Both the position numbers and the translations under genes were made by a program. Below, piece after piece: positions 681 to 40,688 of a DNA stretch of 45,001 nucleotides. Positions within the stretch are counted from its first letter, which is position 1. The number at the start of each line of letters is the position of its first letter. Where the stretch lies: the IMG/VR virus record IMGVR_UViG_3300025676_000029, positions 1 to 45,001 of that record; one strand, written 5' to 3'. The notes below the pieces were generated by a model. That model made no database searches, was not told the origin of the DNA, and saw only the letters and a list, made by a program, of their open reading frames with translations. Source of the DNA: a virus (lineage: Duplodnaviria > Caudoviricetes).

Positions 681-3496
681 TGGCGACGACAATACAAACA
701 ATAGAAGTACCGAAAAAAGCCAGGGCGTTAGATACCTCTGGAAATAACAACCACGGACAAATATATTCTGGTCGAGGATTAGAATTTGATGGGGTTAGTG
801 ATCATTTACTTACGGGATACGGTGATGGATTAAATCCTTATACCACCCCTATAACCGTAGCTATTTGGGTTAAAACAGCAGCTGCGGATGGAAAGATATT
901 TATTGGGCCAACCGCAGGTACCAACCAAAGATTTTACATTGGTCACACTGGCGGGGTGTGGGACATGGGTATACAAGACTCCATCTGGAATAGCACTACC
1001 AATGAGGTGTCTGGTTTTAGTGACCAGCCAAGTTACGAGGTAGACACGTGGTATAGGATAGTTATCGTGATGAGCGCTGGGCAAGCCACTATGTATGTTA
1101 ATGGGGTAAAATCTTATGCCAAAACCTACACTTCTTACGTTTTTGATTCAGACATTACAATAGGAAGTTTTGGCGATAACACGTCTTATTATTGGGATGG
1201 AATGCTATCTGATGCTCAAATCTGGGACGCAGCATTCACACAAGCCGACGTAACGTACGACTACTTAAACCCAGAATCACTCGCTTTAAATAATAGTGGA
1301 ACAGCCTTAACAGAATCCAACCTTAAATTATGGTACCCAATGCAAGATGGTCATAGAGGCCAACAATCATATATTTTAGATGGTGCTAATAGTGGGTTGG
1401 TGGATGAGAAAGTTACTGATGGAAATTTTCCTTCAGGAACTACTGCTTGGACTTCAGATGCTTCTACTGTTTTTGCAGAAGGAAGTGTTACTTTAACGGG
1501 GGGAGGAGATTATAAAAATTTATTGGTGCAAACAAATGTTTTAGAAAGTGGTAAACTTTATAAAGTTACTTATACTTGTGATTTGAGTAGTGTTATATCA
1601 GGTTCATTAAAATTACAATCTTTTAGTGATGGCTCAGTGTCAAGGACAGTATTAGACGGAACAAATACAATATATTTAACTGCTAATGCAACTACCTTTT
1701 ACGTTGGTGAGGGAGGTATGAGTGGAACTGCTACACTTTCAAACGTATCAGTAAAACCCGTAAACGACAAAAACCACGCGACGACTGTGTTTCATGGGGA
1801 TGAGTTGGTTACTAATGGAACGTTTGCTAGTGGTACAACGGGATGGGATAAAAATACCAATACAACTCTTTCTGTTACTAGCGAGCAACTAGACATACAA
1901 AGTGGTGGTGGTAGTGGTGTATATGGATATGCTTATTCTACGGTAAATTTTGTTCAGGGTAGAGCATATAAAATAGATTTAGATGTTATATCTACAAATG
2001 TAGCATCTCATATAAGGGCAGGAAGTACGAGCTCTCTAGCTGGAGTCCCTACTAATATTTGGAATAGTGGAGATATTGGGGTAGGTAGCCAATCTATAAC
2101 CTTTGTGGCCGCGACCAATGCAACTTATTTTGCTATTGGCGGTAGAAATGATATGACTACTTTAGTGATAGACAACGTCTCTATTAAAGAAGTCGGCGTA
2201 GCCTCAGGTTGGACAGACGCAGACCAACAATTACATATACCGCAAACAGCTTTGCAATCGTATAATGAGTTGGCTTGGTTTGATGGAGAGGGAGATTACA
2301 TTGATATTAATCCATCGACAGCTATATGGAATGGAAGTGACGGAGAGTGGAACTCTGTGAGTTGCTGGGTTAACGAAACTGGATTAGATTCAGCTATATT
2401 TTATTGGAGTGCAGGTTTCAATCCTGGTTTGTATGTTAAAATCGATGGTAGTAACCACTTGATAGGGTATAATACTGGTAACGGAGAACAATTTGGTATT
2501 ACCATAGCCTCTACTAGTATAATTAACAAATGGAATCATTGGGTCATGAACTTCAAAAGAAACAGTAATTCTGACGACACAGCTATTAGTGGCTCGGATG
2601 TAGAGCTATTTTTAAATGGAGTGAAGCAAACTCTTAGTTACGTTTCTGGATCTAATAGCAACTCTTGTGATACAAGTACCACTCAAAATATAGAACTAAT
2701 GAGTCATGGTGCTTATTATTTCACTACAGGCGTTATGACGGAGGTGTCTACGTGGAAAGACCAGTTAAGCGATGCTGAGGTTTTAGAACTATTTAATGAC
2801 GGTAAAGCTCTAGACGCTTTAACTCATTCTAACGCCAATCTATCTGCTTATTGGAGAAACAATGGGTTAAGTACTTGGACTAACCTGGTGAACTCAGGTA
2901 CAAACGATGGCACTCCAACTAATGTCACCGAAACAATCCTAATCCCACAAGGCGTAGATTCTTCGCGAGATAATCAAGGATTTATAATGAATAAGCAGAA
3001 AGATACGAGTTGCTTGAATTTGACTAATGGCAGTGATGATCCACACGTAGATTTAGGTAGTGTTGCTACTGTAGCTGACGACGAGGCTTTTAGTTTTGTT
3101 GTATGGTTAAAACCCGATGATTTTACCGCTAATTATTTTATGGGTACTAGTTCAACTGACTATATAAGTGTAAATAGTTCTACTACGCTTGCCATGAGAG
3201 CGGATAACGCCACGGCTGTATTATTTACGGTAGACACTATAGTCCCAAAAGAATGGATTCATGTGGCTGTGGTTAAAAAAGCTTCCAATGATTTAGTCAC
3301 AATATATATTAATGGAGATGCAAGCGTTGACACCGAAACTTTAAACGAACCGTTTGACTATAGGTATTTAGGGTCTCAATATACCTCTAAAAGTTTCAGA
3401 GGAGCTGTAGACGGATTCTTGGTATACAACTCTGAATTAGACGAAACAGAAGTAACAAGAAATTATAACGCTACCAAAGGTAGTCACAGAAATTAA
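680..3496 (+). CDS. Multi-LamG / CBM-like virion appendage (fibre or spike) protein, 938 aa
   Basis: Three LamG-like units (LEFDGVSDH...WYRIVIV...MYVNG...WDGMLSDAQIWD; WFDGEGDY...WNHWV...LFLNG; WIHVAVV...IYING...FRGAVDGFLVYNSEL) plus two NG(T/N)F...NVS(V/I)K modules. Confidence 0.75.
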   Translation: MATTIQTIEVPKKARALDTSGNNNHGQIYSGRGLEFDGVSDHLLTGYGDGLNPYTTPITVAIWVKTAAADGKIFIGPTAGTNQRFYIGHTGGVWDMGIQDSIWNSTTNEVSGFSDQPSYEVDTWYRIVIVMSAGQATMYVNGVKSYAKTYTSYVFDSDITIGSFGDNTSYYWDGMLSDAQIWDAAFTQADVTYDYLNPESLALNNSGTALTESNLKLWYPMQDGHRGQQSYILDGANSGLVDEKVTDGNFPSGTTAWTSDASTVFAEGSVTLTGGGDYKNLLVQTNVLESGKLYKVTYTCDLSSVISGSLKLQSFSDGSVSRTVLDGTNTIYLTANATTFYVGEGGMSGTATLSNVSVKPVNDKNHATTVFHGDELVTNGTFASGTTGWDKNTNTTLSVTSEQLDIQSGGGSGVYGYAYSTVNFVQGRAYKIDLDVISTNVASHIRAGSTSSLAGVPTNIWNSGDIGVGSQSITFVAATNATYFAIGGRNDMTTLVIDNVSIKEVGVASGWTDADQQLHIPQTALQSYNELAWFDGEGDYIDINPSTAIWNGSDGEWNSVSCWVNETGLDSAIFYWSAGFNPGLYVKIDGSNHLIGYNTGNGEQFGITIASTSIINKWNHWVMNFKRNSNSDDTAISGSDVELFLNGVKQTLSYVSGSNSNSCDTSTTQNIELMSHGAYYFTTGVMTEVSTWKDQLSDAEVLELFNDGKALDALTHSNANLSAYWRNNGLSTWTNLVNSGTNDGTPTNVTETILIPQGVDSSRDNQGFIMNKQKDTSCLNLTNGSDDPHVDLGSVATVADDEAFSFVVWLKPDDFTANYFMGTSSTDYISVNSSTTLAMRADNATAVLFTVDTIVPKEWIHVAVVKKASNDLVTIYINGDASVDTETLNEPFDYRYLGSQYTSKSFRGAVDGFLVYNSELDETEVTRNYNATKGSHRN

Positions 3497-25683: not shown

Positions 25684-26154
25684 ATGGATAATATTAACTT
25701 TAGAACCTTTAAGCAAGGTGACTATGAAACATGTTGTGAGTGGTGGAAATGGTGGTGGGGATCGTTTGGAGCAGAACCAATTAGAAGAGGGTTTTTACCG
25801 AAAGACGAAAGATGTTTTATAATTGAAAAAAATGACACGCCTATCGCTGCGACTTTCTTAATACTATCATATGACATACCAGCGGTAGCTTGGACTACAT
25901 ATTTAGTTTCAAATCCAGATTACAGAGAGAAAGATAGAAGAGATATAATAGGGACATTAATAAATAACGTAGAAAAGGAAGCTGAAAAATATGGGGTATT
26001 ACAGTTGTTTACCGTTTGTGGAGATACACATATATCAAATATATACAAGAATTTAGAATGGGAAATGGCCCCTGCAAAATACGAGGCGTTCAAATACATA
26101 GAAAATAATTTGAGAAAAATAGATAAAAATTATGGGAAGAAAAGCAAAAGCTAG
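25684..26154 (+). CDS. GNAT-family acetyltransferase-like protein
   Basis: N-terminal FRTFKQGDY, beta-strand FIIEKNDTPIAATFL, motif A-like LVSNPDYREK...GTLINNVEKEAEKYG, and IYKNLEW. Confidence 0.7.
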   Translation: MDNINFRTFKQGDYETCCEWWKWWWGSFGAEPIRRGFLPKDERCFIIEKNDTPIAATFLILSYDIPAVAWTTYLVSNPDYREKDRRDIIGTLINNVEKEAEKYGVLQLFTVCGDTHISNIYKNLEWEMAPAKYEAFKYIENNLRKIDKNYGKKSKS

Positions 26155-26992
26155 ACAATCAGCATTAGAAGAAAAAATGTTTGCTGCCACTGAAGAACAG
26201 TTGGCGAAATACAATGAAGAACAGGTAGTTCAACGTGAACTTTTAGAAGTGCAAAAAGGAAAATATAGACAGTTTCAATTTGAAAATCCATATGGTGATA
26301 TGGAAAACTATTATGAAGATATGACCGTTGACACTACTGCGGCAGATTATCAAATGAGACAAGGTCAACAACAAAGATCTAATATAATGAACCAGTTAAG
26401 AGGTGTAGCTGGTAGTAGCGGTATAGGTGGGTTAGCGCAAGCATTAGCAAATCAAGGCACTTTACAAGCTGGACAAGTCTCAGCTCAATTATCTCAACAA
26501 GAAAGACAAAACGCTATGATGGCTGCTAAAGGAGCTTCTGCTGCTGATATGGCTCAAAGAGGTGGTGCAGCTATGGTTCAATCCGCTGAAATGCAAAGAC
26601 AATCTACCTTACTCGGTATTGAGTATGGTGGTATGGCTGGGGCTAACGCTGGTGTTCAAGCCGCTTATGGAAATCAAATGTCAGCGTTTGGAGCGAGCGC
26701 TAATATGATTGGTTCTCAAATGCAGATGACGGGTCAAATGTATGGAGCAGCTTTTGAGGCAATAGGAACAGCGAAAGCATCTGACAGACAACTTAAAAAG
26801 AATATAAATAAAATTGGTGAATCACCTAGTGGATTAAATATATATAGTTTTGAATACAAAAACTCTAAATATGGAGAGGGATTATTCCAAGGTGTAATGT
26901 CTGACGAAATACCTCAAGAAGCGGTTGGAACAAGAGATGGTTATGATACTGTAGATTATAGTATGTTAGATGTAGAATTTAAACAAATATAA
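26132..26992 (+). CDS. Putative ejection / DNA-pilot-like protein with C-terminal peptidase S74 (intramolecular chaperone auto-cleavage) domain
   Basis: Q/A/G/M-rich helical body, then ASDRQLKKNI...GLNIYSFEY...QGVMSDEI...VDYSML starting at 26780. Confidence 0.7.
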   Translation: MGRKAKARQSALEEKMFAATEEQLAKYNEEQVVQRELLEVQKGKYRQFQFENPYGDMENYYEDMTVDTTAADYQMRQGQQQRSNIMNQLRGVAGSSGIGGLAQALANQGTLQAGQVSAQLSQQERQNAMMAAKGASAADMAQRGGAAMVQSAEMQRQSTLLGIEYGGMAGANAGVQAAYGNQMSAFGASANMIGSQMQMTGQMYGAAFEAIGTAKASDRQLKKNINKIGESPSGLNIYSFEYKNSKYGEGLFQGVMSDEIPQEAVGTRDGYDTVDYSMLDVEFKQI

Positions 26993-29141: not shown

Positions 29142-32100
29142 ATGGATATAAAAACAGTAGTACAGAACATGATCAATGCTGGCGAATCTGAAGAGAATAT
29201 CGCTAAAGTTATTCAATCGCTTTCGCCAAAGAAGGTAAAAGAAGAAAAGACAATTGTACACGCCGACGCTTTAGACATGGAAACCGAGGTTAGTGATGGT
29301 TGGTTTAGCATGGAAGAGGACGCCGCTAAGTTTTTTACTAAACATTACCAAAACCAAGGTTTAAACGTAGGATTTAAAGAAGCTAAAGTAGGACACAACG
29401 CGTTGCAAATGCAAGTTAATGGAAAGGATTTTGGTGAAATAATAACGCTACACCAAGGCGGTAAAGCAATGGATTTTGGAGAAATTCAAAAACATATACA
29501 ATTTAAGATAGATGACGCCGCTGCTAGTGGCGCTCTTGGAGAAGAATTTGGTGACAAAGAATCTTCAACTAAGAGAACGAAAGAAATCTTAAGCCTTATA
29601 CCTGATGCAAACATGCTTGAGAGTGATGACACTGGAGAGGGTCGGGCTGAACTTGCCCACGCCCTTGACAAGGCACAGGGGATAGACGTGCAATTTGACG
29701 GAAGAATTAACGAAGATGGTTGGGGAAACGAAGTAGACGTATTTGATAAATTCGGAAACAGAAGATCTACAGAAACTCAAAACGTACTAACCAAAGGAAA
29801 GGAAGTATTTGGAGAAATATTCGGAGCTATATCAGGAGAAGGATACGACCAGTATATAGGTGATCTAAGTGGTGGAGTTGAACTTGAAGACGGAACTTAT
29901 GTTCCTTATTCTTATATTTGGGATAGAAGAAAAGAATTGTTAGAGTTAAAGCAAGACGGATTGGGATTACAAACAGAGTATGTAAAAGAAGGTGATAAAT
30001 TAGTACAAACCTTTAAGTATGACGAGAACTCTGATATGAACTCACTGTATAATAAAAAAATATCTGAAGAAGGATTTGGAAGTGAAGGCGCGCTCGACGA
30101 CTACATAGGTGATAACGCCTTTGTATATTTTTCTCCAGGAGAGCAGGAAATAAGACTTAAACATATAGAACTTGAGGGTATTGAAGATGAAGCTGAAAGA
30201 GAGCTTATAAAAGCTGATATAAATAAAAAATGGAAAGAACTATATCCAGATTTATCTGATAGCGACATAGAAGATTTAACGCTATACGATAAAGACGGTA
30301 ATTTCCTTCGTATTAAAAAACCAAAGATAGAGCAAAGAGGTGATGTAACAGAAGAAGAAACTCTAATAGAAAATGAAGCTGATGAATTAGCTAGAGAAAA
30401 TATTAATGATTTAGATTATTTAGTTAAAAAACGCCAAGAAGCTTATTTACGTTTAATACTTTTAGCAAAAAGAGTTAGTGGCAATAAAGATAAGGTTAGT
30501 GATCAAACAAATTATTATGCAAAGCAATTTGGAGAAATGTTTGACTTTTCCAATGACGCTTTAATAAAGGATCTTTCCCAATTAGAGTCAATTGCTAAAT
30601 TTGAAGATATTTTTGCGATTTCAGATGCGCTTGGAGAAGGCAGAACGTTAAAAGACGTTGATATTGGTATTTTAAATCCAAATCTAGGGTCAGATGGAAA
30701 ACCAAGTAAATATAATATAACAAACGAAACGTTAAGTAATTTACCTGGCGGTTCGGCTTTGGCAGAGGAATACAACAAGGCTTTATTAGATTTTAAAGTA
30801 TTATCTAGATCCGTAGATTTAAATCTTGATATAAACCAAACGCCCGAAGAAGGTTTATTCACGGAGATTGTTGATGATCTAGGGAAAAGTATTGCTGGAA
30901 CTGGTATCGTTAACGAGGTAAGTCAAGACGAAGTTAGAGACGCTTATAGAGGTATATTGGAGCATGATGGCTACGAAGTTCCAGAACATGTTATAGAGTC
31001 GTCTTTTTGGAAGAACGGTAGGTTAGGTAAGAATAATGCGACTAGAGACAACATAGAATCTGGGGCCGAAATAGTAACAGATTTAGCACCACTATTAATT
31101 GAATTAGCTGTGTTTAAGAAACTTGGTGGATTAAAGAAATTACAAACCATACTTGGGTCTGCTAAAAACTCAAAGGGACTTCGTACTGGATTAATAGGTA
31201 GGCTTACTAACGGTAAAAGATTTCAAGGTAAGGTACCTAGATTTTTAGTAGATAAAATGATTGCTCCAGGTGTTATAACCGCTGCTGAGTGGGCTTCTGC
31301 TGAAAGTCTTGGAGAGTTAGCTACTGGTGGGGCTTGGAAAGCACATACTATTGATTGGGAGAAAGGTGAAACAAATCTAACTATGCCGATAGCTATGGGT
31401 ATGTCAGCTGGTATGTTTGGTGCGTTTTCTGGAGCGGCTATGAAAGGATTCGAAAGATATGTTCCTGGAGGTAAAAGATTTTTAGCTAACGTAAAAGATC
31501 CTAACGCTTGGCAAAACGCTAAAGCGCTTGGAATTGGAACAAAAAAAGCAGTGGGGACTCCTTTGAGAATGGCAGGACAAGGAGCCACAGCTACAGCACT
31601 GTTAGTAACAGCGGAAACAGCACAAGCTATTACAGACGATTTACTTGCAGACGGAAAAGTTGACTGGGCCGCAAAATGGAAGACTATATCAGATACAGAT
31701 CATTTAATCCAAACGTGGATGGCAATGACAATTCTAAGTGGTAAAGATGTAGTTCCAAAAGCTAGAGAAGCTTACAGAGCAGACGTCGCTAGATTAAAAA
31801 GAAATACAGAGGCAACAGAAAAAGCATATAAAGAATTAGGTGTTGATAAAAATTCAACAGAAACAGAGATAGATCAAGCTGCAGAAAGAAAAATAAAGGA
31901 AACTGAAGAGCGTGGTAAGTTGAAAATGATAGAACCAGAGCAGAGAAAATTAGATGGTAAACAAGTTCTTGATTTTCAACAAGAAAGTGGTTTAACTAAT
32001 GCTGAGGTAAAAGCTAAGGTTGAAGAGATCAAGAAGGCACAGAAAGATCTTCAATCAGATTTAAGGATAAAAGACGCTAAGGCAGCGGCTATATCTGCTG

Positions 32101-35100
32101 GTAGATACTACGAGGATTGGGTAAAGCCTAATTACGACCGGATGCAAAACATAAAAAACAAACCACCAAACGAATGGACTATAGATGATTACAACGCTAT
32201 AAGCGACCTTACGTTTGATCAAATGTACGATGTTTTAAGAAGGAATGGTATGGAACCAAATACAGCTGAATTCAAACTAGCCGAAGATATACATGCGAGT
32301 GTGAAGCATTTAGATTATGTAATTAAGGAATTAGGTATAGACGCTAAGTTACCAGAGTTTAGAGAAGAATATATACGAAATACTTTAAGTATAAATATAA
32401 ATGACTCTCGTATTAAACAACTAAAAAAGATAATTAAAGACGGTAAAAACGTCGGATTAGCTAAAGTTGAGTTAAATAAACTAGAAGAAGCTAATAAAAT
32501 AACTTTAGAAAAGAATATTACCCTTGACAAGAGAGCTGGTGTAGAATACGAAGTAAGATTAAAAGCAGAGGTAGCGGCAGCAAAAGTATTGGCAGAAAGC
32601 TTAGGTGCTAATATAAAAACATACAACGCTAAAGAGTGGAAAGAAGCAGGGTTTGAAGAGGCTGAAGGTTTTTATAGAGAAGTAGACAGTAAGGGAGAGA
32701 TACATTTAAATCTAGATGAAATTAGAAAAACTGGTAACTTAGGGGCTCCAATACATGAAGTTATTCATCACGTTTTGAGAAACGCTATTACAAAAACAGT
32801 TAAACTTAAAGGTGGAAAAACTAAAAAAGTTGTAACCGAAAAAGGTATGGAAATAATTGACGGTTTAATGCAAAAGTTTTCTCCAAAAGAAAGAGAGATA
32901 ATTCAAAAGAGAATTGACGATAATTATAGATATGACGAGACTGGTAAAGAAAAAGCCAAAGAAGATTATTACGACGAATATATAACTGGTATTGGTGATG
33001 CTATTAAGACGAAGCAAATAAAGTATGATCAAAGTAAATTCCGTAAAATAGGTAAGTTAATATATCCCATATTAAAACCTTTAATGCCGAATCTTTATGA
33101 TTATAAATTAAGTAAAACTAGTTCTGCTGAAGCAACTAAAGATTTGTTTAATATGCTTGGTGATATTCATTTAAGCTCTTCTAGTAAAAGAGTTCAAAAA
33201 GCATTGCAAAAACTCGCTGAAACAAATCCTAAAAAAGCCGCTGAAATGGCTGATAAGGCTATAGAGAAAAAATTATCTAAAACAAAAGAAAAGGAAATAC
33301 AAGATTTAGGAAATGAATATAGAGTACTAAACAAAAAGGGTAAAGAATTTTTACAAAAATCAATTGAGAGAGGTGTCTTTGATGCGGTGGAAGTAAAAAA
33401 ATACATGAAAAAGAATAATCTTTCAGAAGAAGGATATTTCAAGGAAACCGCGGATAATAAGTATTTTAGCGCTAAGAAATCTAAAGATCTATGGGATGAA
33501 AAAGGCGCTGATAAAGTTCTAGGTGAAATATATGGAGATTTAGAAAATCTAGCGGGTTCTAAAGCAAAAGAATACGAAGGCACGCCTGATTTCTCAAAAG
33601 AAGACTTTATAAGCAATACTGTGGTGGAAATGGTGATTCATACCCGTAATTTTAAACCTGGAGAAAATAATAATTTATCCGCATGGATTAACTCCCAATT
33701 AAAAAACAAAGCCTTAGAATCCATAAAGCCTAAAACCGGTATTATTAAGGGAAAGTTTGAAAAACAAATTGGTGGTGAAGAAATAAGAGATATAGAGTCA
33801 AAGGATATGACGGCTGAAGAAATATATGATGCTAAGCAAGCCGCAAAAGCAATAATTGAAAACGCTACTAATCTTAGAAAATCTTTAGTCAACGAAAAAG
33901 GTGAACATTATATTACGGAATCATTTATCAAGGAAGTAGAAAATGCAACTATGAAAACCTTGATGCAAAAACTACCAGAGATTCCTACTAAAGAATTTAA
34001 AAAAGCGTTGTCAGATTCTTACGATTCATTTCTTAGAGACAAGATGGTTCAAATAATGGGTAAGGGAAAAGAGTATGATACATTTTTAGAAAACACCCGC
34101 GAAACCATACATGAATACATGCCAAAAGAAACCTTGATACAATTAGAAAGATTAGTTCATAGTAAAAAAATATTAGCTAAATATCCTAATGCTAAAAAAA
34201 TATTTACAACTAAAAGAAGAATTACGAAACCTACTGAGGTTGATTTGTTGGTTAGCAAAGAATTACTACCTAAAGATGTTAGCAGAACCTCGGGCCCTAA
34301 TTTAATTACTAAACTTGAAGCGCCAGGTATTAGAGAACATATGGCTTTTTTCAGAGGTAAATATACAGATCCAATTACCGGGAAAACTGAAAGTATGTTG
34401 GATATATTGGGGTACGAAGTAAACGAATCTCAACTAAACAATAGGAAAAGTAAACTAGGAGGAGAGTTAAGTATCAATATGGCGTTTGATAAAACTATAG
34501 AAACTATGCGACTTCCTGAGGTAATGAAGAGAAGGAGAGAAATAGAAAATACTACTAGCGAACAAGCTCAATTAGAAATAGCTGAAATAGCTAAACGCAT
34601 CGACAGGAATCCTGACATGAAGTTTTCTAAAAACAAAGTAAAAGACTATGAGAACGCCGCTTCAGTAGAAAGAGATATGAACTACTTGCTTAGAGAAATT
34701 CGTTTAAAAGGTAGAGAAGAAGTTTATGATTCCAAGGGTAAATTATTAGATACTTATAAAGACAAAAATATAAGTAAGTTTACGTCTGATTTTATTTTAG
34801 ATTTAGATAACAGAGGTTTAATATATCCAGAACCTTATAAATCAGAAATCGTAGCCCAACAAAGATACTTACAAGGATTATCTAGTAGTATTAGATCTGG
34901 TTCTTTTGAAACAATACCTATACAATATGGAATAGAATTAGGGAAACCTTTTGGACTAGAGGTGTTAACAAAAAAAGTTACAGAAGGTGGATACCCTGAC
35001 TTCCACTCTACTGTCCACGGAGTACCTTTTAACGTTGAGGTTAAAATGTTTGATTCTCAACTACCAAGAACTGCCGTGGGTGCTACTTTAAACTTTACAA

Positions 35101-38100
35101 CGGGTAAACATTCGTTTAAAGGAATTGAGCTAGCAGATGCCCAAATGCAGGGCATGTTAACGGAAGTATCGCCAGCACTTAAAAATTGGCAAGATTTTGT
35201 GTTAAAAGAAATGCAACAAGTAGGTATAAACATAAAAGAAATAACTAACACAACAAAAGTTCCTGAAGATATATATTTAAAAGCAAAAAACGAAGGACTG
35301 CAAGTACTAACTAGTATAACTAAGCCGTTTGAAAACGGTCTTGATTATATTAGAGACAAATACGCTGCAAAAACACTAAAAGATGGTACTTCTGTTTCTA
35401 ATCACTACATAGAGGTACAAAGCACGGCTGGCAAGGAATTAGGATTGTATAAAATTAGTGATTTCAATCCTTTAGGATTAAAAGTACCAAAACTAGACGC
35501 AAAAGTAAATTTAAAATTACGTTTCTCGGCTACTAGTTCTACTCCGGTTAATGCACCTAAGGGATATGAGAAATTCCATAAATCTGGACAAAAATACTAT
35601 TCGCCATCTATGGCGTTTATTCCAGTTATGAATATGCGTAGTATATCAAAGAGCTCTCCATATTCTATATCTGTTAAATCAAAGTTCATGAAACTTCTTA
35701 AGTCTCCTGAGTTTGTGAAATTAAAAAAGCTAAATCCCAAAGAAGTAACTGACAAAATAACTAAAAATGTTCAAAGCATTGTTGGTAAGAAATACTCTAA
35801 GTCTACTAAAAAAGAGATTATAAAGGACATGGAGACTATCGATAAAGCCGTTAACTTAGGTAGACTAGTTAATAAGAAGAAAAAAGGTATGAGTGCTTGG
35901 GATTTTGATGACACGCTAGCTTATACTAAGGGTGGTGTTAGATATACTTTACCTAATCCAAGTGGTAAACCACAACCTAAGAAGAAAGTTATATTTGTGG
36001 CTGGTGGTGCTGGATCTGGAAAGTCAAATGTTATTAAGCAACTAGGGTTAGAAAAACAAGGTTTTAAAATTGTTAATCAAGATATATCTTTAGAGTGGTT
36101 AATGAAGAATCATGGATTACCTAAAGACATGAGAGATTTTACCACAGAACAAAAAAGTAAATTTGGTAGTCTTAGTCACCAAGCAAGAAGTATAGCACTA
36201 AGAAAAAGAACAAAGTTTCAAGGTAAAGGAGATGGTGTTATTGTAGATGGTACTGGAGCTAGTTTAAACGTTATGAAAAAGAACGTTAAGGAATTTACAG
36301 ACAAAGGTTATGATGTTCAGATGATGTTTGTGGAAACTTCTAAAGACGTTGCTGTCGCAAGAAACAAAGCTAGAAAAGAAAGATCACTTAGCACGAAAAT
36401 AGTAGAAGGCACGTGGGAAAAAGTTCAGGGGAATAAAAAAGCATACCAAGAATTATTTGGAGAACGATTTGCAGAAGTTAATACCGATAACTTAAAAATG
36501 AAAGATCCAATGCCACCTGAGTTGGTCGAAAGCTTGGATGCGTTTACTAAAGGATATATCAAGGCTAGACTAAATGCCGGTGAGTTCGCTGACAAAGGCG
36601 CTAAATTAAAAGAACAAGGAGCTGAATTTGATTTTGCTGAATTTGACGTTGTTACAGGTGGCAAAAAAGGACCTTTCTTTCAAAAAGCCTTAGATAGAGT
36701 TAAGAAATTCGGATCAGAACATCAGTATATAATAACCGCTAGACCACCAGAAGCACAAGTACCTATACACGAGTTCTTAAAATCTCAAGGATTAAATATA
36801 CCGTTAGAAAACATTAAGGGATTAGGAAATAGCACTGGAGAAGCAAAAGCTATGTGGATGTTAGAGAAGTTTTCAGAGGGATATAATGACATGTATTTTG
36901 CCGATGACGCCTTAGGAAACGTTAAGGCTGTTAAGGATGTTTTAGAACAACTGGACGTTAAGTCTAAAGTACAGTTAGCTATGCGTGGTGAAGACGCTAA
37001 GATAGAATCTAAAGAGTCAGTTAAAGACGTTGATAGGTTAGATGCTCCTGAGAACTACGACAATATAAAATATTCTAAAAGCCATAGATCTGAATACGAG
37101 AACACGATATCTAAACATCGTCCTGATTTAGTTAAAGAGGGAAAAGTGTCTCAAACTATAGACGCTATGTTTGATTTTGTAGACGGATTAAACATACCTG
37201 GAAATAAGAAAAGGAAGTATGAGCAAGTAACTACTAAGTGGTTAGCTACAAGTAACATAAAGCTAAAAGAAGATTCATATAAAATAAAAGAAGCTGTAGA
37301 ATTAGCTGAAAAACATAAAGAGGACATATTCTCTTATAAAAATCCTAATGAGATTATAGAAAAATATGCTGGTAAAGCTAAAACAAAACCAACAGATCCT
37401 AACACTGTAAAAGAGTTTGCTAAAGGCACGGTTACAAACAAAGAGTACGGTATAACAGAACACATTGTTGAGAACACTAAAGAGGGACAACTTGCTGTTA
37501 GAAAGGTTATGGATACTCATTTTGGAGAAAATTCTAATCCATGGTGTCTTGCGCAGAAGAAAGATGGTAAATTAACAGATGACGCTTGGATGAGTTGGAG
37601 AGGTTATGAAAAAGGCCCAAAGAGTATGGTATTCCAAAACGGTAAGTTAATAGCATTCAAAGGTAGTGAGCAATACTGGGACAGAATGGATAACGCTACA
37701 GACGCTCCTGTTGTACAGATTAAAGAAGGTAGAGTTACTAAAAAAGTAGAGTTAGTTCCTATTGGTGGTGGAAAAGCTTCGGAATTTGTTAGGGAAACTA
37801 GAACTGTTAGTAAGGACAAAAATACTGTTACAACAGAATATGCTACAGAAACAGAACATTATGAGGTTGGAACTACCGTTGTAGAAAATAGAGTTAATGG
37901 TATAACTGTTAAAAAGACTACATCTCGTCCTAGTTTTGACAAACAAGGAAACGATGTAATGCAAGTTATGGAAGTAGTAAACTATAATAAAAAGGGTAAA
38001 GCAACTAGTAACAAGAATTTTGAGGATGGGAAATTAATAGCTATTAACACATATGGTAGACCTTTTGGTGAGGCGAAAGTTGAGCAAATAATTAAAGAAA

Positions 38101-40688
38101 AAGGTGATCAAATAGAGTTTATGGACACAAATCGTTTTGGAAGAAGCGAATATTTTGCAGAAGCTCTTGTTGAGAGTAAAATAACGGAAATAGGTTTTCA
38201 ATTGGGAAGAGGCATTAAGCTAGAAAGTGTTATTAAAACATCTCCTGATGGTGAAATAAGATTAGATCTTAATAAATTACGTAAAATAGATCCTGACGTT
38301 AAAGGTTTGCCTAAAGAGACAGCTGGAGTTGAGCAATTTAAATTCAGTAAAAACAAAAAGAATTTAAGTAAAGATTTTAATAAAATACTAGAAGAAGTTA
38401 AAGGCATTGGAAAAGAAAAGACATTTAGTTTGGCTAAAGCTAAATTAGTTGGTAAAGGTAAGGGTAAGTACAAAATTTTTGGAACTCCAGGAGCTGAAGA
38501 TTTCGCGGGATTAGTAACTTATGCTTTTGCTGGTAAAGGAAAACAAGGGGAGATGCACAAGAAGTTTTTTGAAGAAAACTTACAAAAACCTTTTAATAGA
38601 GCTTACAACGATATACACTCTAGAAAGCAAAATATATCTAACGATTACAAAGCCTTGAGAAAAGCAATGCCAGAAGTTAGAAGTAGATTAAACGAAGCGG
38701 TAGATGGAGTTTATACTGTAGACAATGCTATTAGAGTACATCTATGGAATAAAGCTGGAATCGAAATACCTGGTTTGTCTAAGACGGATTTAAAAACACT
38801 AACAGATTTTGTTAGAAAAGACGGTGAGTTAACTTTATTCGCCGAGCAGTTGTCTCAAATAACAATGTTAAAAGAGGGTTATCTTAAGCCAGCGGATTAT
38901 TGGTTAGGTGAAAACATAACAATAGATATGAACAATGTTGTTGATCGTGTTTATAGGAAAGAAGCTCTAGCTGAGTTTGTGGAAAACAGAGAAGCTATAT
39001 TTGGCAAATGGAAGGGAGGGGAAATAGTAGGAGAAAACATGAACAAAATAGAGGCTGCCTACGGACCTAAACATAGAGAGGCTTTAGAAAATATTTTATG
39101 GAGAATGGAAAACGGTACCAACAGAAAGACCGGAGCTGATTCCAACACTAACAAATGGATGAATTGGGTTAACAGTGCGACTGGAACTATAATGTTCTTT
39201 AACCAGAAATCCGCAGTGTTACAAACTATATCTAGTTTAAATTACGTTAACGGTACGTTTAATAATCCGTTAAGAGCAGCTCAAGCTTTTGCTAACCAAA
39301 AACAATACTGGGCTGATTTTGTTAAAATATTTGGCTCAGATATGATGGTGCAAAGAAGATCTGGATTAAAAATAAACATTGAAGCAAACGAACTAATAGA
39401 AAGAGTAGGTAGTGGAGAAGGAGGTTTTGCTAAGTTTAGAGCTTACTTATTGGAAAAAGGATTTATACCTACAAAATATGCCGATAGTTTTGCTATTGCT
39501 TCAGGTGGTGCAACTTACTATAGAAATAGTATTAGAAAGTACGAAAAAGAAGGTTTGTCAACTAAAGAGGCTGAGAAAAAGGCTTGGGAAGATTTTACTG
39601 AAATGACAGAAGCAACACAACAGTCTTCTCGTCCTGATTTAATATCTATGCAACAAGCCTCTGCTCTTGGTAGACCAATATTAGCCTTTGCTAATACTCC
39701 TATGCAGATGTTTAGAAGACACAAAAGGCGTATTCAAGACATAGCAAACGGAAGAGGTAATACCGCTGAGAACGTTGGTAGTGCTCTGTATTATGGCTTT
39801 GCGCAAACGTTATTATTCTCATACTTAGCCAACGCTATGTTCGCTGTAGACGACGAAAGTGACGATCCAGAGGACATTGAGTTTGCAGAAAAAAAGAAAT
39901 CTAGACACGTTAATACCATTGCGGATTCTTATTTAAGAGGTATGGGTACTGGAGGTGCTAGTGTAGCTGCTTTAAAAAACGGAATAATGAGTTTTATAAA
40001 CGAGTCTAAAAAGGATCATAACGCTGACTACGGTAACACTGTTATAGATATGTTAAATGTATCTCCACCTATCGGATCTAAAGCTAGAAAACTATATAGC
40101 GCTGGCAAGTCTTATATGTATAACAAAGAAGCTGTGCACGAAATGGGGTTAGATTTTGACAACCCAGCTACTATGGCTATAGCAAACGTTATATCAGCGT
40201 TTACAAACATGCCTACAGATAGAGCTGTTATGAAGATTCAAAATATTAGAGACGCATCTATGGGTGATTTTGAAAACTGGCAAAGAATAGCTATGTTTAT
40301 GGGTGTTAACAAGTGGCAGCTAGGAGTCGGTGAAAAAGGACCTGGTGAAATAAGAGTTGAGGAGGTTGAAACTAGAGTTAAAGGAGAAAAGAAAACAAAG
40401 AAAAAAGAAATAAAACAACAAGAAAACCAAGTTTTAGAAAATCAATTTAAGAACGAACAAAAAAAGGAAAAGAAACAAGGAAAAAAAGATGTAACTTGTA
40501 GTTCTGTTGTGAACGGAAGAAGGTGTAACAAGAAAGTAAAAGGAAAAGGCGGTAAGTGTACTATTCACGAAAGCGTAGAAATGCATCCTTCTGGAGAATC
40601 AATACAGTGTAGAAGAAAGAAGTCTAACGGTAAAAGATGTAAGGTTACAACATTCAGTAAAAGTGGACTCTGTTACTATCACGATTAA
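29142..40688 (+). CDS. Giant polyvalent virion cargo / ejection protein, 3848 aa (zincin peptidase, sigma region 2-like, PD-(D/E)XK-like, HAD plus P-loop kinase, PcfJ-like, C-terminal CCCH zinc fingers)
   Basis: HEVIHH at 32754; EDF...NFKP...LSAWI about 33600-33690; YPDF...VEVK about 34992-35045; DFDDT 35901; AGGAGSGKS 36000; IITAR about 36729; YFADD about 36894; NPWCL about 37536; two C-x8/9-C-x10-C-x2-H at 40497-40683. Confidence 0.8.
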   Translation: MDIKTVVQNMINAGESEENIAKVIQSLSPKKVKEEKTIVHADALDMETEVSDGWFSMEEDAAKFFTKHYQNQGLNVGFKEAKVGHNALQMQVNGKDFGEIITLHQGGKAMDFGEIQKHIQFKIDDAAASGALGEEFGDKESSTKRTKEILSLIPDANMLESDDTGEGRAELAHALDKAQGIDVQFDGRINEDGWGNEVDVFDKFGNRRSTETQNVLTKGKEVFGEIFGAISGEGYDQYIGDLSGGVELEDGTYVPYSYIWDRRKELLELKQDGLGLQTEYVKEGDKLVQTFKYDENSDMNSLYNKKISEEGFGSEGALDDYIGDNAFVYFSPGEQEIRLKHIELEGIEDEAERELIKADINKKWKELYPDLSDSDIEDLTLYDKDGNFLRIKKPKIEQRGDVTEEETLIENEADELARENINDLDYLVKKRQEAYLRLILLAKRVSGNKDKVSDQTNYYAKQFGEMFDFSNDALIKDLSQLESIAKFEDIFAISDALGEGRTLKDVDIGILNPNLGSDGKPSKYNITNETLSNLPGGSALAEEYNKALLDFKVLSRSVDLNLDINQTPEEGLFTEIVDDLGKSIAGTGIVNEVSQDEVRDAYRGILEHDGYEVPEHVIESSFWKNGRLGKNNATRDNIESGAEIVTDLAPLLIELAVFKKLGGLKKLQTILGSAKNSKGLRTGLIGRLTNGKRFQGKVPRFLVDKMIAPGVITAAEWASAESLGELATGGAWKAHTIDWEKGETNLTMPIAMGMSAGMFGAFSGAAMKGFERYVPGGKRFLANVKDPNAWQNAKALGIGTKKAVGTPLRMAGQGATATALLVTAETAQAITDDLLADGKVDWAAKWKTISDTDHLIQTWMAMTILSGKDVVPKAREAYRADVARLKRNTEATEKAYKELGVDKNSTETEIDQAAERKIKETEERGKLKMIEPEQRKLDGKQVLDFQQESGLTNAEVKAKVEEIKKAQKDLQSDLRIKDAKAAAISAGRYYEDWVKPNYDRMQNIKNKPPNEWTIDDYNAISDLTFDQMYDVLRRNGMEPNTAEFKLAEDIHASVKHLDYVIKELGIDAKLPEFREEYIRNTLSININDSRIKQLKKIIKDGKNVGLAKVELNKLEEANKITLEKNITLDKRAGVEYEVRLKAEVAAAKVLAESLGANIKTYNAKEWKEAGFEEAEGFYREVDSKGEIHLNLDEIRKTGNLGAPIHEVIHHVLRNAITKTVKLKGGKTKKVVTEKGMEIIDGLMQKFSPKEREIIQKRIDDNYRYDETGKEKAKEDYYDEYITGIGDAIKTKQIKYDQSKFRKIGKLIYPILKPLMPNLYDYKLSKTSSAEATKDLFNMLGDIHLSSSSKRVQKALQKLAETNPKKAAEMADKAIEKKLSKTKEKEIQDLGNEYRVLNKKGKEFLQKSIERGVFDAVEVKKYMKKNNLSEEGYFKETADNKYFSAKKSKDLWDEKGADKVLGEIYGDLENLAGSKAKEYEGTPDFSKEDFISNTVVEMVIHTRNFKPGENNNLSAWINSQLKNKALESIKPKTGIIKGKFEKQIGGEEIRDIESKDMTAEEIYDAKQAAKAIIENATNLRKSLVNEKGEHYITESFIKEVENATMKTLMQKLPEIPTKEFKKALSDSYDSFLRDKMVQIMGKGKEYDTFLENTRETIHEYMPKETLIQLERLVHSKKILAKYPNAKKIFTTKRRITKPTEVDLLVSKELLPKDVSRTSGPNLITKLEAPGIREHMAFFRGKYTDPITGKTESMLDILGYEVNESQLNNRKSKLGGELSINMAFDKTIETMRLPEVMKRRREIENTTSEQAQLEIAEIAKRIDRNPDMKFSKNKVKDYENAASVERDMNYLLREIRLKGREEVYDSKGKLLDTYKDKNISKFTSDFILDLDNRGLIYPEPYKSEIVAQQRYLQGLSSSIRSGSFETIPIQYGIELGKPFGLEVLTKKVTEGGYPDFHSTVHGVPFNVEVKMFDSQLPRTAVGATLNFTTGKHSFKGIELADAQMQGMLTEVSPALKNWQDFVLKEMQQVGINIKEITNTTKVPEDIYLKAKNEGLQVLTSITKPFENGLDYIRDKYAAKTLKDGTSVSNHYIEVQSTAGKELGLYKISDFNPLGLKVPKLDAKVNLKLRFSATSSTPVNAPKGYEKFHKSGQKYYSPSMAFIPVMNMRSISKSSPYSISVKSKFMKLLKSPEFVKLKKLNPKEVTDKITKNVQSIVGKKYSKSTKKEIIKDMETIDKAVNLGRLVNKKKKGMSAWDFDDTLAYTKGGVRYTLPNPSGKPQPKKKVIFVAGGAGSGKSNVIKQLGLEKQGFKIVNQDISLEWLMKNHGLPKDMRDFTTEQKSKFGSLSHQARSIALRKRTKFQGKGDGVIVDGTGASLNVMKKNVKEFTDKGYDVQMMFVETSKDVAVARNKARKERSLSTKIVEGTWEKVQGNKKAYQELFGERFAEVNTDNLKMKDPMPPELVESLDAFTKGYIKARLNAGEFADKGAKLKEQGAEFDFAEFDVVTGGKKGPFFQKALDRVKKFGSEHQYIITARPPEAQVPIHEFLKSQGLNIPLENIKGLGNSTGEAKAMWMLEKFSEGYNDMYFADDALGNVKAVKDVLEQLDVKSKVQLAMRGEDAKIESKESVKDVDRLDAPENYDNIKYSKSHRSEYENTISKHRPDLVKEGKVSQTIDAMFDFVDGLNIPGNKKRKYEQVTTKWLATSNIKLKEDSYKIKEAVELAEKHKEDIFSYKNPNEIIEKYAGKAKTKPTDPNTVKEFAKGTVTNKEYGITEHIVENTKEGQLAVRKVMDTHFGENSNPWCLAQKKDGKLTDDAWMSWRGYEKGPKSMVFQNGKLIAFKGSEQYWDRMDNATDAPVVQIKEGRVTKKVELVPIGGGKASEFVRETRTVSKDKNTVTTEYATETEHYEVGTTVVENRVNGITVKKTTSRPSFDKQGNDVMQVMEVVNYNKKGKATSNKNFEDGKLIAINTYGRPFGEAKVEQIIKEKGDQIEFMDTNRFGRSEYFAEALVESKITEIGFQLGRGIKLESVIKTSPDGEIRLDLNKLRKIDPDVKGLPKETAGVEQFKFSKNKKNLSKDFNKILEEVKGIGKEKTFSLAKAKLVGKGKGKYKIFGTPGAEDFAGLVTYAFAGKGKQGEMHKKFFEENLQKPFNRAYNDIHSRKQNISNDYKALRKAMPEVRSRLNEAVDGVYTVDNAIRVHLWNKAGIEIPGLSKTDLKTLTDFVRKDGELTLFAEQLSQITMLKEGYLKPADYWLGENITIDMNNVVDRVYRKEALAEFVENREAIFGKWKGGEIVGENMNKIEAAYGPKHREALENILWRMENGTNRKTGADSNTNKWMNWVNSATGTIMFFNQKSAVLQTISSLNYVNGTFNNPLRAAQAFANQKQYWADFVKIFGSDMMVQRRSGLKINIEANELIERVGSGEGGFAKFRAYLLEKGFIPTKYADSFAIASGGATYYRNSIRKYEKEGLSTKEAEKKAWEDFTEMTEATQQSSRPDLISMQQASALGRPILAFANTPMQMFRRHKRRIQDIANGRGNTAENVGSALYYGFAQTLLFSYLANAMFAVDDESDDPEDIEFAEKKKSRHVNTIADSYLRGMGTGGASVAALKNGIMSFINESKKDHNADYGNTVIDMLNVSPPIGSKARKLYSAGKSYMYNKEAVHEMGLDFDNPATMAIANVISAFTNMPTDRAVMKIQNIRDASMGDFENWQRIAMFMGVNKWQLGVGEKGPGEIRVEEVETRVKGEKKTKKKEIKQQENQVLENQFKNEQKKEKKQGKKDVTCSSVVNGRRCNKKVKGKGGKCTIHESVEMHPSGESIQCRRKKSNGKRCKVTTFSKSGLCYYHD

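Follow-up and report, generated by a model that had tools for sequence, protein, structure and literature searches.

Background

Phage polyvalent proteins were defined by Iyer et al. in 2017 (PMC5512222), and autoproteolysis by their MPTase domain was proposed in that paper. The same paper describes the N4 virion RNAP, which also has an MPTase, as being packaged unprocessed. Cutting of fused virion RNAP polyproteins by a zincin was suggested for the crAss-like phage phi14:2 (preprint 10.1101/2020.03.07.982082), and the metallopeptidase of phi24B has been assigned to peptidoglycan (preprint 10.64898/2026.04.10.717836). Nothing on the cutting of DdrB was found in the portion of the P1 paper covered here (PMC9024508).

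The giant protein analyzed here (the query) resembles the polyvalent proteins of Iyer et al. 2017 in being a very large multidomain phage protein with HExxH and a downstream Glu, for which autoproteolytic release was proposed. It also carries several biochemically unrelated enzyme domains in one chain, which is mosaic across relatives. The HExxxH variant known in polyvalent proteins is found in the query family as well. The portion of PMC5512222 covered here names no junction motif or cut site and makes no mention of sigma, PcfJ or linker, and the module set of the query (sigma-2, PD-(D/E)XK, Pnkp-like) was not found in it. The crAss-like phi14:2, also a Bacteroidetes podovirus, is similar in having large cargo genes (gp65-gp66-gp67) after a muzzle-like gene. 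The cargo proteins of crAss001, which must partly unfold to exit (PMC10172136), are a further likeness. In contrast to the crAss-like polyproteins, no RNA polymerase was detected in the query, which is built of small modules that can be exchanged for one another. The parts of these sources covered here describe no cleavage motif for the crAss-like proteins. No junction code or cut site was found in the accessible literature that was searched.

Several phages carry a gene in the same position as the query. Elemovirus gp90 (Flavobacterium phage elemoA 13-1A, MT497065, 3694 aa, annotated as structural) has a homologous N-terminal region, as linked through family members, a zincin and modules after the zincin, but its tag is R-x-Q (aa 1683, 2079 and 2302 in P0121) and its modules are different. 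Pervagoviridae phi38:1 gp101, Pachyviridae phi18:3 gp123 and Maribacter phage Panino CDS0069 have a related N-terminal region, but are only 1,691-1,935 aa long and have no HExxH. Among the matches listed for these three relatives, none was to the module zone of the query family.

Genome context and domain architecture

The window, meaning the whole 45,001-nucleotide stretch analyzed, is a 45-kb virus record that is ~77% complete. Terminase, portal, capsid and muzzle-like genes are followed by genes for proteins of 286, 711 and 3848 aa, the last being the giant protein (Table 1). The portal and capsid are matched in Elemovirus, Pervagoviridae and Pachyviridae phages of Flavobacteriia (25-52% identical). 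The source is an uncultured marine Bacteroidetes-type podovirus. The 286-aa virion protein gene (26132-26992) has a weak match at its end to Peptidase_S74, an intramolecular chaperone (E 0.006).

The position of the giant gene is the same as that of Elemovirus gp90, phi38:1 gp101 and phi18:3 gp123. The last large gene of those Flavobacteriia phages is annotated as structural, and phi18:3 gp123 is a virion protein by MS/MS. The N-terminal region of family members matches the virion proteins phi38:1 gp101 and phi18:3 gp123 (E down to 1e-13). Since this region is common to structural or virion proteins of related phages, the gene position and the MS/MS-annotated relative suggest that the giant protein is likely packaged in the virion.

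Family members are laid out as N-terminal region, zincin, J0, module A, J1, module B, J2, HAD, last junction and C-terminal domain, and additional modules come with additional tags, the term used here for the junction motifs. The family is common, with pattern matches estimated in ~1,500 viral and ~5,900 metagenome stretches. Among 160 loci, no split of the giant gene at a tag was noticed. In L079, L117 and L137 it is broken into two ORFs away from the anchored junctions checked, which may be an assembly error or a real split.

Table 1. Features of the giant gene, in positions of the window
Feature	Position	Strand	Remarks
Giant protein, 3848 aa	29142..40688	+	Last gene of candidate ejection/cargo block, after muzzle-like gene
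N-terminal region (aa 1-1149)	29142..32588	+	Without motif enrichment
Zincin-like metallopeptidase domain, ~aa 1150-1345	32589..33176	+	HEVIH at 32754-32768
Third ligand candidate E1279	32976	+	Kept in 128/129 domains
Junction J0, KLSK, aa 1377-1380	33270..33281	+	Directly after zincin; coil, pLDDT <50 just before and at start
Module A, sigma-70 region-2-like (~aa 1382-1532) and further helical domain	33282..34619	+	Pfam Sigma70_r2 E 0.01
Junction J1, KFSK, aa 1827-1830	34620..34631	+	Coil, pLDDT 29-42
Module B, PD-(D/E)XK-like nuclease, swappable slot	34632..35789	+	E1923 / D1953 / E1966-x-K1968
Junction J2, KYSK, aa 2217-2220	35790..35801	+	Low-confidence linker
HAD phosphatase (DFDDT) with P-loop kinase inserted inside	35802..37067	+	Polynucleotide kinase/3'-phosphatase-like
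P-loop kinase nested in HAD, ~aa 2280-2471	35979-36554	+	Pfam AAA_33 / Zeta_toxin
Junction Jp, KYSK, aa 2643-2646	37068..37079	+	Start of optional NPWC module; short break between two helices after disordered linker, pLDDT ~73
Optional NPWC module, H-x-G-x(3)-NPWC, beta-rich second half	37080..38339	+	Conserved motif
Junction before C-terminal domain, KFSK, aa 3067-3070	38340..38351	+	Coil, pLDDT ~34
C-terminal domain, conserved, helical, with basic Cys-containing tail	38352..40688	+	2,033 matches
Inserts with second HAD tail and tag before C-terminal domain			P0011, P0012, P0035, P0042, P0050, P0107; L017, L043, L056, L099, L124-L126, L128

The HEVIH(H) metallopeptidase at aa 1205 named in the initial annotation was confirmed. 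The H, E and H residues are kept in 129/129 domains and the downstream Glu in all except one, at low overall identity. The domain has the HExxH helix, a Glu further downstream and the small beta sheet, and its VIA structural match is to the zincin 3e11 (Z only 6.8, whole-model search). No other HExxH or annotated head protease was seen in the 27 window ORFs scanned. HExxH is lacking in two locus proteins that cover the zincin position; both have HExxxH in its place, and their tags are regular. In the HExxxH variants (L028:1873-9249 and L072:3809-12466), [AG]-x-x-S-K tags are present at all junctions and the C-terminal domain is divergent. A second HExxH zincin-like domain occurs as a downstream module in P0167, P0170, P0173, P0181, P0198, P0210, P0233, P0236, P0238 and L009 (MW202828), and a tag follows in most such proteins.

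The sigma region 2-like assignment of module A gained weak but consistent support. In addition to the Pfam match, module A matches SigB in VIA (Z 8.0, rmsd 3.6, 88 aligned), and most of the top VIA rows over model residues 243-393 are sigma factors. Sigma region 4 was not detected in this module. The PD-(D/E)XK-like reading of module B agrees with D1953, E1966 and K1968 being present in 10/10 homologs, and its ESM Atlas lead is R.HinP1I (0.90). The module B part of the AlphaFold model is low-confidence, and a fold match to the restriction-like fold is absent there. In 248 proteins, 9 linkage groups were found to occupy this slot (query's own group, 15).

The third module was expected to be a HAD plus kinase, and this was borne out by the Pfam matches and by VIA, where the kinase matches PNK 4gp6 (Z 16.9) and the HAD matches the T4 Pnkp phosphatase 5uj0 (Z 13.3). 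The query is therefore like T4 Pnkp in both folds (Z 13-17), but differs in that its kinase is nested inside the HAD and optional, and in being part of a likely virion polyprotein. The insertion is present in 32/122 family HADs as a nested rather than tandem Pnkp-like fusion; no junction motif was seen at its edges. No RNA ligase partner was identified in the window. There was also no match to an RNA polymerase (two-barrel, DFDxD), and the DFDDT sits in a HAD fold like that of the T4 Pnkp phosphatase.

The fourth module had been called PcfJ-like, and this label gained no support, with no PcfJ match in 19 members at E 0.05 or in the ESM Atlas. It is referred to here as the NPWC module; 17/126 proteins have it at the query's slot, and P0109, P0115, L058 and L148 have it at another slot. 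No Pfam family was found for the C-terminal domain, and tblastn of this domain against annotated phages gave no match. Its basic tail (~40500-40688) has Cys pairs (CSS...C...C..H, C...C...C.YH) in only some homologs and is possibly zinc-binding. A Pfam scan of the module zone in 53 of 135 locus proteins gave 1 weak match. For the whole 1,111-residue model, Foldseek against the PDB gave nothing at E 0.001 and a viral structure library returned uncharacterised proteins only. As parts of the larger models, the C-terminal domain, the NPWC module, module B and the latter half of module A received no fold assignment.

Tags at the module junctions

The motif positions in the initial annotation were correct: those in Table 1 and an additional KLSK at aa 1322 (33105). 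Exactly four K[FY]SK occur in the giant protein, and the spacings are 450/390/426/424 aa. Enrichment over a shuffled sequence holds only in part. The count of 4 compares with 0.21 expected from composition shuffles (p 0.0004), but some four-letter pattern is equally extreme in 294/300 shuffles, so the excess is not significant after look-elsewhere correction. The single-protein count was thus ruled out as proof, and the claim therefore depends on homologs.

The homolog set consisted of 126 proteins, which are the best 120 of 2,033 matches to the C-terminal domain (one being the query) and 6 locus proteins; two duplicates of L004 were dropped, and HExxH is present in 126/126. Between the zincin and the C-terminal domain, [KRQLM][FY]S[KE] was observed 211 times versus 43 expected. 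Outside of this module zone it was not enriched (26 vs 29 expected upstream, 12 vs 21 downstream). The 4.9-fold enrichment (range 4.9-6.1x) is thus confined to the module zone, and it is descriptive because the 126 proteins are related and not independent. The other window ORFs have 2 matches in 10,944 aa (27 ORFs tested).

A K-[FYL]-S-K motif at the junctions was a correct description of the query, but the family motif is looser, approximately x-x-S-[KE] with clade-specific spellings. The Ser position is A, T, Q or N in ~10/104 last junctions (by eye), and the tag is degenerate. KLSK 1322 is probably not a junction because it is inside the zincin model and is poorly kept in the clade, being present in 1/10 other proteins of the query zincin clade (P0022; three windows shifted). 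Tag-like words also occur in folded parts, such as KFSE (KFSEG) at aa 2576 within the HAD, where the Ser is not conserved, and F-S near aa 3095. An element [KR]x[FY]SxAKA is conserved early in the C-terminal domain (aa 3092-3098, ~38415-38435) and in homologs; it is tag-like and could be either a further site or a helix cap. Two KYSK matches occur in phi18:3 gp123, which has no zincin.

AlphaFold models were made of aa 1140-2250 (mean pLDDT 64) and 2190-3290 (mean pLDDT 80). The expectation that the motifs fall in disordered linkers agrees with both models: 4/5 tags are in coil of low pLDDT, and the remaining one lies next to a disordered linker. A helix begins within a few residues after most tags. 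Linkers are not always tagged, since the long low-confidence linker in module A (aa 1529-1569) is without K[FYL]SK.

Modules are gained or exchanged at the tags across homologs, as had been anticipated. BLAST breakpoints fall within 30 aa of tags in 40% of cases vs 23% for random positions, a signal that is weak and diluted because of the tag-less kinase insertion. A second copy of the HAD tail (last ~20 residues) together with a tag ends 14/37 post-HAD inserts, some of which are near-duplicates. Some tags would therefore arise by duplication, which suggests module gain by recombination that duplicates the junction. Between the tag and the HAD there are 10 to 62 residues, as measured in the 53 proteins whose own-word match is good.

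The initial annotation also considered a standard cassette junction. In the sense of a DNA element this is disfavored, since Ser is encoded by codons of both families. Ser codons at the last junction in the loci are AGY in 81 and TCN in 25, and codons differ between junctions of one gene. No conserved nucleotide sequence that would mark a recombination site was found at the junctions, where synonymous codons are mixed. The codon usage points to the tag being a protein-level code.

Tag spelling across lineages

With a generic last-junction PSSM, J2 and J0 could be told apart from most controls. The HAD control, however, had a high score owing to KFSEG, and therefore own-word tests replaced the PSSM. 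The word was taken at the first Ser after the HAD tail (104 proteins) and compared with a protein's own J0 and J2 windows versus those of other zincin clades. The own last-junction word fits the own J0 better in 35/41 zincin clades and the own J2 in 34/40, and random own Ser words, used as a control, gave no excess (~0). The own-word excess was replicated in 37/50 and 42/50 in a held-out set of 94 locus proteins with zincins <60% identical to the first set. The homolog tests showed the motif conserved at module junctions in two protein sets with null controls. These comparisons indicate that tag spelling is private to a lineage and common to that lineage's junctions.

The NPWC module gives an example. 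It is 67-89% identical over the first 170 residues among the 17 carriers, yet the tag differs by zincin clade. In the query's clade the module opens with KYSK; clade 2 has LYSK, clades 9 and 12 have KSSK or RSSK, two clade-6 proteins have FSKV or NSKV, and P0050 has MLSK. Most of these opening words echo other junctions of the same protein; P0005 opens with KFSR.

A matrix regression that related word similarity to the similarity of five protein regions gave coefficients of 0.194 for the zincin (p 0.001), 0.096 for the N-terminal segment, 0.054 for the C-terminal domain, 0.013 for module A and -0.01 for the HAD. The effects are modest (r 0.26) and the Mantel-type p values are optimistic since the proteins are related. 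The word sits between the HAD and the C-terminal domain, yet the zincin predicts its spelling best. Discordant pairs scored 9.9 when alike in the zincin (75 pairs) vs 3.9 when alike in module A (86 pairs). At the level of sequence, spelling follows zincin similarity and not the flanking domains. The N-terminal segment, which is adjacent to the zincin, also predicts the tag and is not fully separable from it, so the reader could lie there.

The Elemovirus clade has a zincin that is homologous to that of the query family (hhalign 92.6%), and was represented by the best 120 of 228 matches. R-x-Q is enriched 5.8x in the Elemovirus clade vs 0.94x in the query family, and the Ser tag is enriched 5.6x in the query family vs 1.3x in the Elemovirus clade. 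This double dissociation indicates that each zincin clade is enriched for its own tag only. In 116/120 Elemovirus-clade proteins, one zincin family is followed by modules of 9 families that begin at R/K-x-Q/S, a permissive regex that picked an early false word in a few proteins. Elemovirus-clade proteins carry PF18760, PF18838 and PF18857; the query has no LPD Pfam match. DA[IV]Q (as EDAVQKQ) is 10-fold enriched upstream of the Elemovirus-clade zincin (42 vs 4.2, P0121-P0240), is found at aa 1090 and 1220 of Elemovirus gp90 (L011) and is possibly a second signal. Elemovirus is cultured, so its gp90 is testable.

Proposed mechanism and alternatives

The tags are candidate autoproteolytic cut sites of the embedded zincin, which would release virion-delivered enzymes, and we give this reading a probability of about 0.7. 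The cleavage site proposed in the initial annotation is favored by the module junctions, the swaps, the intact zincin catalytic set and the co-variation of tag and zincin. Weighing against it are the degeneracy of the tag, the tag-like words in folded parts, the helices that follow most tags, the N-terminal segment as a second predictor, the modest regression effects, the KYSK matches of phi18:3 gp123 and the unprocessed packaging of the N4 virion RNAP. The zincin domain would read and cut the x-x-S-K tags of the giant polyprotein, whether still inside the head or once the protein has entered the host. Its most likely cut position is before the Ser, because an N-terminal Ser is stable under the bacterial N-end rule. 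The predicted pieces are ~154, 52, 44, 48, 48 and 88 kDa, and the sigma-like, nuclease-like, RNA-end-repair-like and other modules would be freed as separate proteins. The N- and C-terminal pieces may act in ejection, as the crAss001 cargo proteins are thought to (PMC10172136). The freed inner modules would act early in infection by binding host RNA polymerase, cutting DNA and healing RNA ends cut by host nucleases. It is fold resemblance that suggests these three roles.

The tag could instead be a docking or binding signal that is read without cutting by a co-evolving part of the giant protein or of the virion during packaging, ordered unfolding or ejection, with the zincin acting elsewhere, for example on peptidoglycan or host proteins. 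Such a signal would fit with the N-terminal segment also predicting tag spelling, with the proposal that the zincins of crAss-like gp65 and phi24B gp47 digest peptidoglycan (10.1101/2020.03.07.982082; 10.64898/2026.04.10.717836) and with the N4 vRNAP being packaged whole (PMC5512222). It is nevertheless unlikely, since the zincin is the strongest predictor of spelling, the enrichment starts right after the zincin with only about four residues that matter, and every module resembles a stand-alone enzyme. That the tags are cut by another protease, either from a separate phage gene outside the window or from the host, is very unlikely. From lineage to lineage the spelling tracks the embedded zincin, tag enrichment is absent from the other window proteins, and neither a further HExxH nor an annotated head protease was seen in the 27 ORFs scanned. 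However, the incomplete record means that another protease gene may be missing, and prohead proteases process head proteins in many phages.

The tag might also have no reader. It would then be a structural relic, a helix cap or a linker, that spread as the gain of modules duplicated the junctions. The inserts that end in a second HAD tail and tag are what such spreading would leave, and the tags do precede helices in the models. However, J0, J1 and J2 do not follow a HAD tail yet have the same spelling, codons differ between the junctions of one gene, and the tag of a common module is respelled by zincin clade. The Elemovirus clade also uses Gln, which is a poor helix cap, and this explanation is quite unlikely. 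Chance matches in a Lys-rich protein would be consistent with the single-protein count failing the look-elsewhere test, but are extremely improbable, because two protein sets with null controls both show conservation that is specific to the junctions.

Implications

Autoproteolysis by phage MPTases has been proposed since 2017; new here are the replication in held-out loci, the test of zincin against flanking domains and the prediction of sites in a cultured phage. If the tags are cut sites, their co-evolution with the zincin allows cut positions and fragment sizes to be predicted exactly, and these are testable in the cultured Elemovirus (R-x-Q). Thousands of giant 'hypothetical' phage proteins could be divided by the same rule into candidate early effectors, and the differently spelled zincin/tag pairs found in nature would amount to a set of proteases with short sites. 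It is somewhat more probable than not that abundant marine Bacteroidetes podoviruses use a virion polyprotein strategy in the style of eukaryotic viruses, in which a single gene would code for an ejection protein, a zincin and exchangeable host-takeover enzymes, with a protease-tag code private to each lineage to which captured modules must adapt their border.
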